In this document: positions 3,551 through 27,771 of the stretch, in pieces
Position numbering within the stretch: the first letter of the stretch is position 1
How the letters are laid out: each line of letters starts with the position of its first letter
Assembly (NCBI GenBank): GCA_964388985.1
Contig: CAYMCJ010000003.1
Coordinates: forward strand, 1,190-35,445
DNA: 34,256 nt
Source of the DNA: an uncultured Gammaproteobacteria bacterium
GTDB lineage: Bacteria; Patescibacteriota; Patescibacteriia; Patescibacteriales; CAYMCJ01
Direction: 5' to 3'
Made by a program: the position numbers and the translations under genes
The notes under the pieces: generated by a model
What the model saw: the letters and a program-made list of their open reading frames with translations, nothing else
What the model was told of the DNA's origin: nothing
The model's database searches: none

Positions 3551-4114
3551 TTATTCGTAATAACGGGATGAGACTGTTGTCTGCATTATTATTTCCTGGC
3601 CATGCATCTCTTTTCCGATTGCTTTAATCTTCATTTTCATGGTCGCGGTCGGCTGACCGACTGATGAATCCCCCTGGATAAAAAATTTTAAATCACTGAC
3701 TTCAATCTTGCTGGATGTAACATAGCCGGAATTACCATTACGGCTGATTTCTAATCTAGAACCATCTAATTGATAAGTTACACATTCATCATGATAATTT
3801 TTAAAATACAGGCTATCGCTATCTGCGTTAACGCCGTAAACACTATTAAGGCCGCAAGCGCCATCATCTTTTTGCGCCATTCGCATCTCTTTGGATATCA
3901 TCTCAAAAGCATAACGCATACTTTCCTGCACATTTTGCGCTGATATAGCGTTTCTTTGCCCCTCAATAACCATCTTAAAAGTCTCGGTGGCTATAAGCAC
4001 AATAACCGAAAATATGGCTACTGATACAACCATCTCAAATAATGACGTCCCCTTTTTATTTTTATATATTAAACTTAACATAAAATAAAATTTAAAATTA
4101 GAAACTACCGCCAA
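3551..4114 (-). CDS. Prepilin-type N-terminal cleavage/methylation domain protein (PilW-like by position)
   Basis: 187 aa. Prepilin motif G|TSLFE followed by a hydrophobic helix. The likely true start is M12 at 4081 (MLSLIYKNKKG|TSLFE), which removes the overlap with the upstream gene. The PilW-like label is positional inference only. Confidence 0.6.
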   Translation of the reverse strand: MAVVSNFKFYFMLSLIYKNKKGTSLFEMVVSVAIFSVIVLIATETFKMVIEGQRNAISAQNVQESMRYAFEMISKEMRMAQKDDGACGLNSVYGVNADSDSLYFKNYHDECVTYQLDGSRLEISRNGNSGYVTSSKIEVSDLKFFIQGDSSVGQPTATMKMKIKAIGKEMHGQEIIMQTTVSSRYYE

Positions 4115-4904: not shown

Positions 4905-5486
4905 TCAATCAATGACATCAATTAATCCTAAAAAATTAACTTCAATCGTTTTTACGGATTCCCCGTCGCTTAATTCTATTTGCACCAAATTATTATTAGA
5001 ACCGCTACTGTCAATAATCCAAATGATTGGGTCGGGCGGCTCAAAACTAATATCAGCCGAACTACCGCTTCCAATAATAATATCATTTATTTTAACGCCG
5101 GCCGGCAAGCTTATTGTCTCGTATTCTTCGGTTAGTTGATTACAAATTCCGTCTCCGTTAACATCGGCAAAAACAATATAATTTTCCGGGTCTAAAACAG
5201 AAAAATGTATTCCCCACCCTCCCTTAGGGGCGTCACTATCAAATTTTTTCAGACCAAGGGAATAATTCTGGGCAAATCTTATGTCGCTGGCCAATTTTTG
5301 GGCGGACATAATCAGTTCAGACCGCTTCTTTGTGCCATGATAATTAGCCAAAAAAAGACTGGAAATCATCGCAATAATGGAAATTCCCACTACAAATTCA
5401 ATAAGCGAAAAACCACGCCTCTCATTCTTTAAAAAAATACTAAATTCAGAGAAAAAAAATTTTTTGTTTTTAATTTTTGTATCCAT
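4905..5486 (-). CDS. Prepilin-type minor pilin (GspH/FimT-like)
   Basis: 193 aa. G|FSLIE motif and a hydrophobic helix, then SAQKLASDIRFAQNYSL, which resembles GspH/FimT-type pseudopilins. A TATAAT lies 5 nt upstream of the ATG. Confidence 0.65.
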   Translation of the reverse strand: MDTKIKNKKFFFSEFSIFLKNERRGFSLIEFVVGISIIAMISSLFLANYHGTKKRSELIMSAQKLASDIRFAQNYSLGLKKFDSDAPKGGWGIHFSVLDPENYIVFADVNGDGICNQLTEEYETISLPAGVKINDIIIGSGSSADISFEPPDPIIWIIDSSGSNNNLVQIELSDGESVKTIEVNFLGLIDVID

Positions 5487-5496
5487 AACTTATTAT

Positions 5497-5656
5497 AGGA
5501 CTGTCGCCGAGTGCGCTTTTGAAGCGAAAATTTAAAAAATCAAAAAAAATTTTATACAATCTTTGAGGTTTACCTGAAAGTTAAACTAAAAAAAATTAGA
5601 AAAAATTTTACTGATTTTTTGGATTTATAGCCAAAACGATATTCGGCGACAATCCC
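5497..5656 (-). repeat. Family C stem-closed ~160-nt element, copy 2 (upstream of the FimT-like gene)
   Basis: Its reverse complement aligns over its full length with 23772-23938 (shared blocks ttttggcta, taaacctcaaa, tttcgcNNcaaaagcgca). The terminal arms 5497-5514 and 5639-5656 pair. Confidence 0.75.
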
Positions 5657-5848
5657 ATTATATATTTTACCATATTCTAAACAAAAATAAAAATCCCAAA
5701 TTAGGGATTTTAATGTAAAAACCAAACAAGACAAACAAAATGAGTTAATATTTAAAATTAAACTACCACCGGCCAGGCCGGTGGAATTACCGGCGATATG
5801 GACTTTGTCCTGCGATAATAAAGCTTCTCTGTCATTTCGGAACCAGCA

Positions 5849-23422: not shown

Positions 23423-23506
23423 AAAAAATTGTTATAATCTGACTTATGCCTTAAAATGAAATTAAATAATATTTAATTAAACGTCTACCTAAAATTATAT
23501 AATTAT

Positions 23507-23599
23507 CTACGAATTACGAATGTTTTACAAATCTACAAACACTAACGCAAACGTCTCAACTAATATTTGTAAATTTGTACTTAATTTGTAATTCGTGGC
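23507..23599. repeat. Family A inverted doublet (gene-less)
   Basis: ctacgaattacgaatgttttacaaatctacaaaca, a 22-nt spacer, then tatttgtaaatttgtacttaatttgtaattcgtggc. The right arm differs from 498-534 at one base. Confidence 0.8.
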
Positions 23600-23707
23600 T
23601 GATAAATTCAGACAAACGCGCAAGTCAATCAATCAATGTATTCTGTTTATATCTTACCTTATTTTTATAACCTTGTTAAGGCTAAATCCCAAAAATAAGC
23701 CCGATTG

Positions 23708-23736
23708 TTGACAAAATTTAATATTATTGCTATACT
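23708..23736 (+). promoter_or_regulatory. Near-consensus sigma70 promoter
   Basis: TTGACA, exactly 17 nt, TATACT. It sits 36 nt upstream of family C copy 1 and ~240 nt upstream of the zinc-ribbon ATG. Confidence 0.65.
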
Positions 23737-23771
23737 GCCAACATAATTAAATAATGTTTACGTTCTTTTTA

Positions 23772-23938
23772 AGGGACTGCCACCAAATGCCATTTTGGCT
23801 ACAATTTATAAAAATCCGGCCAAATTTTCCCAAAAATTTTTTAGCTTATATTTTTCATATAAACCTCAAAATTTATTGAAAAAATTTGTCTTGAATTTTT
23901 AAAATTTCGCGGCAAAAGCGCATTTGGCGGCAGCCCCT
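23772..23938 (+). repeat. Family C stem-closed ~165-nt element, copy 1 (upstream of the zinc-ribbon gene)
   Basis: Arms agggactgccaccaaatgc (23772-23790) and gcatttggcggcagcccct (23920-23938) pair at 17/19 positions and enclose an AT-rich interior. Confidence 0.75.
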
Positions 23939-23975
23939 ATTAACTAAATTTTCGTAAACAACACAAGAAAAGTAA

Positions 23976-24146
23976 ATGGATAACAAAGATTATTCCGGCG
24001 GACGCCCGATGGTTAAAGGAAACTGGACCTGTTCCAAATGCGGAGCGGAAATCACAGAACTTCCTTTTGAACCGGACGGAGAAAGACCGCTTTATTGCCG
24101 AGATTGCCATCAGCAAATGAGGCAAAGTCGTCCCAGACGATTCTAA
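23976..24146 (+). CDS. Small CxxC...CxxC zinc-ribbon protein (56 aa, not in ORF track)
   Basis: Hand translation: MDNKDYSGGRPMVKGNWTCSKCGAEITELPFEPDGERPLYCRDCHQQMRQSRPRRF. The C-x2-C / ELPF.P....RP.YC.DC layout matches the CxxC-x17-CxxC domain family common in CPR (here x18). It is followed by an intrinsic terminator and preceded by a consensus promoter. Confidence 0.75.
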   Translation: MDNKDYSGGRPMVKGNWTCSKCGAEITELPFEPDGERPLYCRDCHQQMRQSRPRRF

Positions 24147-27138: not shown

Positions 27139-27771
27139 TTATTGCGGTCTGATTTCTCCTCCAAAGGCGGACAGGCATTCAGCCGGATTATAATAAATAT
27201 ATCGCCTAATTATTTGTAATGATTTTTGTTGGCGGACAATATGGTCATAAAATGACCTTTGCCATTTAAATTCAGCCAACCCGGATTCATGAATCATTTT
27301 TGATGATGCGGTTTTAAACGCGCCAATTATATTTGATAATGATAATATTTTAAAATTATTATTATTTATATTGGCCGTGGTAGGGACAGGTCTAGACCTG
27401 TCCCTACCAAACCTGTCCCTACCAAACCTGTCCCTACGGCTACGGCTACGGCCCGCCGCATTTTTAATTTTTTCCGAATTTATTAAAACAAGGCCGTGCA
27501 TGTGATTCGGCATTATTATAAATTGATCCAATTCTATATACGGATATTGTTGTTCCAGCCACAACCATTGTTGTCGCGCTATTTTCCCGTATTTATTTAA
27601 TATTGTTTTTCCATTTTTTACCTCGCCAAAATATTTAATTTTGTCTTTTACGCAAATCGTTACGAAATAATATCCGTCCCGCGAATAATCATAACCTTTC
27701 AGCCGGTTTAATTTCCGGGTATGCATTGGTAAAATTATTTTTTTCGCCTCCTTATAATAATACATATTCAA
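27139..27771 (-). CDS. IS200/IS605-type Y1 (HUH) transposase-like protein (RAYT-like)
   Basis: 210 aa. HUH motif in IIMPNHMHGLV and catalytic Tyr context WQRSFYDHIV. The likely start is M17 (27723). The loop between the motifs is encoded by a palindrome plus tandem repeats. Confidence 0.8.
   Translation of the reverse strand: MNMYYYKEAKKIILPMHTRKLNRLKGYDYSRDGYYFVTICVKDKIKYFGEVKNGKTILNKYGKIARQQWLWLEQQYPYIELDQFIIMPNHMHGLVLINSEKIKNAAGRSRSRRDRFGRDRFGRDRSRPVPTTANINNNNFKILSLSNIIGAFKTASSKMIHESGLAEFKWQRSFYDHIVRQQKSLQIIRRYIYYNPAECLSAFGGEIRPQ
27379..27455. repeat. Perfect 30-bp palindrome followed by 3 x 15-bp and 3 x 6-bp tandem repeats inside the Y1 transposase-like ORF
   Basis: ggtagggacaggtct|agacctgtccctacc (27379-27408). 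(a/g)aacctgtccctac(c) occurs three times (27394-27437), then ggctac three times. All are in frame and encode RRDRFGRDRFGRDRSRPVPT. Confidence 0.9.

Follow-up and report, generated by a model that had tools for sequence, protein, structure and literature searches.

Miniature inverted-repeat transposable elements (MITEs) are small, end in terminal inverted repeats, are flanked by a target duplication, encode no transposase and form a long stem-loop (Delihas 2011, PMC3184786). The Correia/NEMIS, RUP, ERIC and Nezha elements are shorter than 400 bp, carry inverted repeats, a duplication and no ORF, are intergenic and form stem-loops at the RNA level (PMC3184786). The bcr1 element of the Bacillus cereus group is about 155 bp long and occurs in 11-130 copies per genome, with a distribution that is not conserved between relatives; it has 5-bp flanking direct repeats, an AT-rich target, a cruciform-like fold and compensatory changes, and no transposase has been identified for it (PMC3184786, PMC6542083).

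The element described here occurs twice in the window, i.e., the whole analysed stretch of 34,256 nucleotides from an uncultured bacterium of the Patescibacteria (CPR). These bacteria have tiny, streamlined genomes. The element is shorter than 400 bp, has terminal inverted repeats, a 5-bp duplication and no transposase ORF, and is present in many copies at non-conserved sites; the one trait not found is a cognate autonomous IS or a transposase with matching ends. As it has every feature of the definition given in PMC3184786, it belongs to the MITE class.

The nearest analogue in kind appears to be bcr1, the likeness being one of features and not of sequence comparison: both elements are about 155-165 bp long, multi-copy, flanked by 5-bp repeats and folded into a long stem-loop, with no transposase identified. 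However, bcr1 belongs to another phylum, is known to be transcribed and has a fixed TTTAT flanking motif that has been read as site-specific, whereas at least 26 pentamers flank the Patescibacteria element. For the Correia/NEMIS, RUP, ERIC and Nezha elements, a parent IS that matches at the ends is identified or strongly suspected, and their duplications are mostly TA or other; the element described here has a 5-bp duplication, and its parent IS was not found. The ends of the Tn3 family begin with GGG(G) and are about 38 bp long. The termini here measure 16-18 bp, not ~38 bp, and PF01526 was present in 0/24 genomes, although the Tn3-derived TIMEs/IMU share with the element GGG(G) ends, a 5-bp duplication and AT-rich targets (for IMU, PMC3184786). 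REPIN/REP sequences with their RAYT enzymes likewise consist of two inverted conserved units in a hairpin, with high copy numbers and compensatory changes, and an unlinked single-copy enzyme is conceivable for the Patescibacteria element too. To our knowledge, mobility of the REPIN or IS200/RAYT type leaves no target-site duplication, whereas duplications are present here, Y1 genes are anti-correlated with the element and the GTAG/CGTC tag is absent.

A literature search found no paper linking MITEs with Patescibacteria or CPR and none containing the terminal 16-mers, and the family is previously undescribed. We put the probability that the element is a MITE, a non-autonomous DNA transposon whose family is specific to a single order of Patescibacteria, at roughly 0.8.

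The window copies and their relatives in the same genome

Copy 1 (23773-23937, plus strand, 165 nt) and copy 2 (5497-5656, minus strand, 160 nt) were delimited by alignment and repeat search. The sequence-only reading had claimed that 23772-23938(+) and 5497-5656(-) align over their full length, and the comparison bore this out. The two are homologous from end to end (blastn E 1.8e-19, 73% identity), 24 of the leading 32 nt counted from GGG are identical with all eight differences being transitions, and the blocks TTTTGGCTA, TAAACCTCAAA and TTTCGCNNCAAAAGCGCA are common to both. The distances to the downstream ATG were also as described, 37 nt for copy 1 (ATG at 23976) and 10 nt for copy 2 (pilin ATG at 5486). 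The left terminal inverted repeat of copy 1 (23773-23788, plus strand), GGGACTGCCACCAAAT, has three changes relative to the consensus GGGACTGTCGCCGAAT, and the right one (23922-23937, plus strand) reads ATTTGGCGGCAGCCCC. Both copies fold end to end into one long hairpin, at -49.0 kcal/mol (z -5.0) and -47.8 kcal/mol (z -7.4), with 0/200 shuffles as good. The reported double changes in the terminal helix were recovered at columns 8:158 (U-A vs C-G) and 13:153 (G-C vs A-U). The interior of copy 1 contains no ORF of 60 aa or more.

Copy 1 is followed by a 56-aa treble-clef zinc-finger gene (PF23477; 23976-24146, plus strand) and copy 2 by a 193-aa type IV pilin-like gene with an N-terminal methylation (N_methyl) motif (4905-5486, minus strand). 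The near-consensus promoter noticed upstream of copy 1 is present at 23708-23736 on the plus strand; it is sigma-70-like, TTGACA-17-TATACT with TG upstream, and has 11/12 matches. Lake-metagenome contigs of many other organisms pile up at two places, with depth spikes to 75: at 23500-23605, where the DNA upstream of the promoter is rich in TACAAAT/TACGAAT heptamers, and at 24039-24073, a 35-nt piece inside the zinc-finger gene. A Y1_Tnp gene (IS200-like HUH, 210 aa; PF01797, E 5e-6) lies at 27139-27771 on the minus strand, 3.3 kb from copy 1. It has an in-frame repeat insert and ~112-bp direct repeats on its flanks, without MITE termini.

The sequence-only reading had proposed that copies be collected genome-wide and in relatives. 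The genome of the window (1.06 Mb in 82 contigs, 35.6% G+C, 83% complete) was searched with BLAST and then with an nhmmer profile, which yielded at least 12 copies of full length besides about 10 that are shorter or diverged, so that the window holds two of about two dozen; related genomes hold hundreds. The full-length copies are on contigs C64, C26, C15, C34 (two), C1, C3 (two), C46, C13, C28 and C4. Each of them also matches the profile on the opposite strand (E 1e-14 to 1e-22), which shows that the element is an imperfect palindrome over its whole length. Among the full copies, copy 1 has diverged furthest, with 63-76% identity to the other 11 in this genome; copy 2 shares 79-87% with the C64/C15/C26 subfamily, in which C64 and C15 share 95%. 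Both window copies are old insertions. The copies on C13 and C28 are identical and that on C4 is 99% identical to both. These three, 99-100% identical at unrelated loci and each with a perfect duplication, point to recent activity.

All copies in this genome are intergenic. Among the full copies, six precede a gene in sense orientation, three (C26, C34b, C28) lie antisense between two genes of the same direction, and two (C1, C13) are placed between genes that converge. Genes with their start facing a copy encode an ECF-type sigma factor, an HTH protein, a DHH phosphoesterase, a methyltransferase, a YibE/F membrane protein, the pilin and the zinc finger, with a further one located downstream of a MacB-type permease, and they are functionally unrelated to one another. 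An Rfam family had been suggested as a further check; at the gathering threshold there was no match, and the E-value threshold added only sub-threshold plant miRNA-precursor hairpins on both strands. A tRNA/tmRNA scan was negative.

Termini, target duplications and distribution

Every copy is bounded by 16-bp terminal inverted repeats, GGGNCTGTCGCCGAAT ... ATTCGGCGACAGNCCC, and these 16 nt are strongly conserved across lineages whose inner parts are unrelated. The element occurs as a whole-length imperfect palindrome of ~161-165 bp and in shorter forms down to 37-bp termini-only units, with an overall range of 36-235 nt, and encodes nothing. Among 85 non-redundant elements, taken from the genome of the window, from 20 contigs of G125 and from other Patescibacteria MAGs, 36 have an exact 5-bp flanking direct repeat, compared with 1.7% in a control that combined the left flank of one copy with the right flank of another. 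Flanking repeats of k = 4 or k = 6 gave no signal in this set. When 120 metagenome loci were added, groundwater metagenomes included, 69 of 179 non-redundant copies (39%) had a perfect 5-bp repeat vs 1.5% in the control (binomial P = 5e-76). The duplicated pentamers vary between copies, with GATAG, TGCAG and GATCT among the at least 26 different ones, and the target consensus is the AT-rich palindrome Y-ATWAT-R (T/C-A-T-W-A-T-A/G). These data show insertion at AT-rich palindromic targets with a 5-bp duplication, as would be expected of a symmetric enzyme whose cuts are staggered by 5 bp.

In the window, copy 2 retains a perfect duplication: ATTAT on the plus strand (ATAAT on the gene strand) at 5657-5661 upstream, with 5/5 identity in the gene-proximal copy at 5492-5496. 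The left flank of copy 1 reads TTTAA (23768-23772) and the right flank TATTA (23938-23942), a 3/5 match, and its duplication has decayed.

The 37-nt elements seen in G125, in G133, at loci L142 and L179 and elsewhere consist of two 16-nt termini and a 5-nt loop. In the class of elements shorter than 60 nt, to which these forms belong, 5-bp duplications flank 10/31. The 37-nt forms are either self-mobile or recurrent in-situ deletions between ATAC repeats of 161-mers.

A survey of 151 species-representative genomes of the order, using the terminus pattern with at most one mismatch, showed that 37 carry the termini, with 0 to 243 matches per genome and near 0 in the reversed-pattern control. The largest number was found in G125 (243 in 0.7 Mb), followed by G129 (126), G133 (42), G075 (34), G121 (25), G137 (22) and the genome of the window (20). 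At the peak this is about one terminus match per 3 kb, i.e., one element every 3-6 kb, and almost all contigs of the G125 assembly have both their start and their end within an element. Two of three genomes of the same family have no termini. Outside the order, an exact terminus match was present in only 3 of 300 genomes of the phylum, all of one genus. The named MAGs with copies include Candidatus Magasanikbacteria, Kerfeldbacteria, Azambacteria and several "Parcubacteria/Patescibacteria group" bins.

A 5.4-kb contig of G125 carries four elements where the 84%-identical orthologous stretch of G133, a genome of the same genus, has none. A clean empty site with a single pentamer was not seen among the comparable genomes, because the closest of them are only ~84% identical and their intergenic DNA is too diverged. 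More than 40 copies in G129, a genome of another genus, match the 161-nt copies of G125 at 91-95% identity, whereas the flanking DNA reaches 76-79%. This likeness indicates horizontal spread or strong constraint, and the family appears to move between genera. The window locus was found with the element in four lake-water metagenomes, all of them DNA runs; at the low coverage of these data neither element-skipping joints nor read-level polymorphism was seen, and exact-protein look-ups of the zinc-finger and pilin proteins, aimed at strains with empty sites, returned no record.

Two further differences were observed between G125 and G133. At L276 (G125:C10, 1810-1850), compared with L297 (G133:C27), a decayed mini-element lies in a coding-looking stretch that is highly conserved on both sides; the two differ in length by 18 nt, which would leave the reading frame intact. 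On the reverse strand of L297 (~3985-4057), three tandem CTCCCGCATATTGCGGGATCAATTTT hairpin units occupy the intergenic place where G125 has a 161-nt MITE. The CTCCCGCATATTGCGGGATCAATTTT units are a second, unrelated type of small palindromic repeat in this genus.

Fold constraint, the mobilising enzyme and rival explanations

The consensus fold of the 12 full copies from the genome of the window has 47 pairs with 94.4% of cells paired. Double changes affect 15 pairs, compared with 8.7 in column shuffles (0/500 as many) and 4-9 in slid-partner controls, which shows that the pairing is maintained. The covariation of the hairpin is real, but the changes separate subfamilies of the element and carry no RNA-strand bias. 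In the 16-nt termini of the 85 elements, changes in one arm (85) outnumber compensated ones (40), and 33 of the latter are at position 4, where they define A-, G- and T-type subfamilies. Mismatches of the A.C type (39) are not rarer than G.T (27). The excess of one-arm changes and the lack of a wobble bias do not suggest that selection acts on a single transcribed RNA strand. The two arms in G121 differ consistently at position 9.

For 50 elements of ~161 nt from many genomes, the consensus fold retained the terminal stem alone, since the inner parts are too diverged to align (pairwise inner identity drops to 44%). Inner pairing was measured instead as self-complementarity per copy, and the inner part proved ~71% self-complementary (53% in shuffles) at a length of 160-165 nt. 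Sister families in the genome of the window have the same ~100-nt core and other, but again complementary, termini (TAGACCTACTGCATAA, GAGACTGTTTAAAAAG, AGACCTCTTGCAAAAT). Their copies at C12:11538-11671, C24:11970-12122, C47:6552-6700, C10:10752-10918, C34:11625-11792, C29:10752-10911, C30:933-1099 and C11:20126-20311 share the core with its apex hairpin and TAAACCTCAAAAATT block, and these families show no clear 5-bp duplication. Two of the sister copies (C47:6560-6680 and C11:20134-20302) contain a nested GC-rich insert of ~30 nt, GCCAGCCTCGCCAGC...GGCGGGC, suggesting another small insertion-prone repeat.

The conserved length, the palindromy and the termini of the sister families argue that the element's own fold is constrained, and this structural constraint exceeds what a plain model of transposase-binding sites predicts. 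The "compensatory" changes of the closing stem reflect subfamily founders with symmetric ends together with the family-wide constraint on palindromy.

The search for the mobilising enzyme revealed neither an autonomous copy nor a terminus-flanked transposase among ~300 terminus pairs, which lie 36-235 nt apart; the exceptions to this spacing are separate elements around ordinary genes. The 929-nt pair of degenerate termini at L205 is a short element and a solo end around an unrelated ORF, the apparent 2.8-kb pair at G121:C59 consists of two separate mini-elements around a P-type ATPase gene, and the sole 1.8-kb pair, at L414, is an element split around or flanking a 495-aa secreted-protein (signal-peptide) ORF and not a transposase. 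Single termini near large ORFs in other MAGs adjoin genes for a CCA-adding enzyme, IF-2, GluRS, a P-type ATPase and glycosyltransferases, and no transposase. Viral contigs gave 32 single terminus matches, mostly in GC-rich phage DNA; the five low-GC ones (L224, L225, L240, L246, L252) show continuous gene-like sequence and no partner terminus, and their matches look like chance matches inside phage genes.

Tn3-type transposase PF01526 was absent from all 24 genomes examined, 12 of them carriers. PF01797 (Y1) was absent from the highest-load genomes G125, G129, G133, G075 and G137, whereas Y1_Tnp genes are abundant in the zero-copy genomes G001, G004, G008 and G009 and number six in the genome of the window. 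Across carriers and non-carriers, rve, DDE_Tnp_1 and IS1595 are patchy or absent and none tracks the element. With these five families searched, some top carriers have no recognisable candidate transposase. An rve-type IS in the genome of the window (C25:10676-11764, minus strand; 362-aa transposase) is bounded by inverted ends of its own (...ATGAGCCTGAA...) that bear no relation to the MITE termini, and weak rve matches in G125, G137, G129 and G121 fall on IS30-like or small integrase fragments, none of which has ends that match. At L305 (G125:C111, 145-752), an IS30-like transposase remnant (equivalent to aa 191-332 of the full G137 copy) ends exactly at the left boundary of a 161-nt MITE. 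Its N-terminal half is missing on the far side of the MITE, which suggests a MITE-associated deletion.

MAGs often lose IS copies, and many accepted MITE families are also without a known parent. The absence of a cognate transposase is thus weak evidence, and it lowers the certainty on the mechanism, not on the class.

Movement might instead depend on structure, the enzyme reading a hairpin, a cruciform or a single-stranded fold-back in place of a terminal sequence and being encoded once elsewhere in the chromosome, outside the repeats, like RAYT for REPINs; in a variant, the host would have put the hairpin to its own use, as a terminator, to stabilise mRNA or to bind a nucleoid protein. The maintained hairpin, with its 94.4% paired cells and 15 doubly changed pairs against 8.7, would fit, as would the conservation of length and palindromy but not of sequence, a core common to families with different complementary termini, the lack of a terminus-flanked coding copy in ~300 elements and the top carriers devoid of a recognisable candidate. 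However, 5-bp duplications that vary in sequence and share a palindromic target are what an ordinary staggered-cut transposase leaves behind, termini conserved despite unrelated inner parts fit sequence-specific binding, the covariation lies largely between a few subfamilies, the arms in G121 differ consistently, and the routine loss of IS copies from MAGs weakens the argument from absence. We regard such structure-dependent movement or co-option as improbable, and what credit it has it owes mainly to the constraint on the element's own fold. It is likewise doubtful, if somewhat less remote, that the element represents an orphan superfamily of hairpin transposons, in which an unlinked single enzyme, a domesticated or unrecognised nuclease or transposase, reads the fold-back plus a short terminal motif. 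If true, this would explain the sister families, the strict length of ~161 nt, the 37-bp forms and the 0.7-Mb genomes with more than 100 copies and no recognisable transposase.

A REP/REPIN-type element moved by an HUH tyrosine (Y1, IS200/RAYT-like) transposase is very improbable. It could invoke a hairpin doublet that resembles a REPIN and has compensatory changes, and enzymes at hand, the Y1_Tnp gene at 27139-27771 being 3.3 kb from copy 1 and one of six in the genome. Yet 39% of copies have variable 5-bp duplications, of which IS200/RAYT mobility leaves none, and Y1 genes are missing where the load is highest and abundant where there are no copies; both observations argue against this gene as the mobiliser, which moreover is not flanked by termini, and the termini do not start with the GTAG or CGTC tags of the REP superfamilies. 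The sequence-only reading had left the choice between a miniature inverted-repeat element and a structured 5' leader of a small regulon, and had named scattered orientation relative to genes as the observation that speaks against the leader. Both window copies are sense and just upstream of genes, copy 1 behind a strong promoter, and the fold is stable and covarying, which would suit a cis-acting riboswitch- or attenuator-like RNA. Nevertheless, the family occurs in both orientations, with three full copies antisense and two between convergent genes, and its neighbours are unrelated, so the regulon leader is refuted on the ground set beforehand. The match of the element to itself on the opposite strand, the target-site duplications, the range from 0 to more than 100 copies per genome, the missing wobble bias and the merely generic plant miRNA hairpins in Rfam agree with this, and the leader is left with next to no probability. 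The inverted-repeat half of the earlier proposal, in contrast, is upheld by the copy number, the termini, the 5-bp duplications, the patchy spread and the near-identical copies.

Local effects and meaning for Patescibacteria genomes

As a MITE, the element would be moved by a transposase supplied in trans that binds the termini and cuts with a 5-bp stagger, in a DDE-like manner. Copy 1 would have entered between the strong promoter and the zinc-finger gene, and copy 2 a TATAAT-like box upstream of the pilin gene. To judge from the position of the promoter, copy 1 would lie within a ~230-nt leader of the zinc-finger gene. Because it is situated between a strong promoter and that gene, its hairpin is probably in the 5' UTR, where it would be co-transcribed as a passenger. 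The gene-proximal duplication of copy 2 and the last base of the element read TATAAT, 5 nt before the pilin ATG; the duplication together with a terminal C-to-T change has restored this box on the gene side. Copy 2 probably inserted into a TATAAT-like box 5 nt before the ATG, and such an arrangement is typical of a leaderless gene.

The interest of the family lies in its very high local abundance in reduced genomes, the missing transposase and the unexplained conservation of its fold. It fragments assemblies, occupies promoter-proximal AT-rich boxes and puts hairpins into 5' UTRs. In scans of CPR genomes, its copies will be mistaken for riboswitches, leaders or terminators, and they are markers of strain-level variation. 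Somewhere in these communities there should be an enzyme that recognises GGGNCTGTCGCCGAAT and cuts with a 5-bp stagger.
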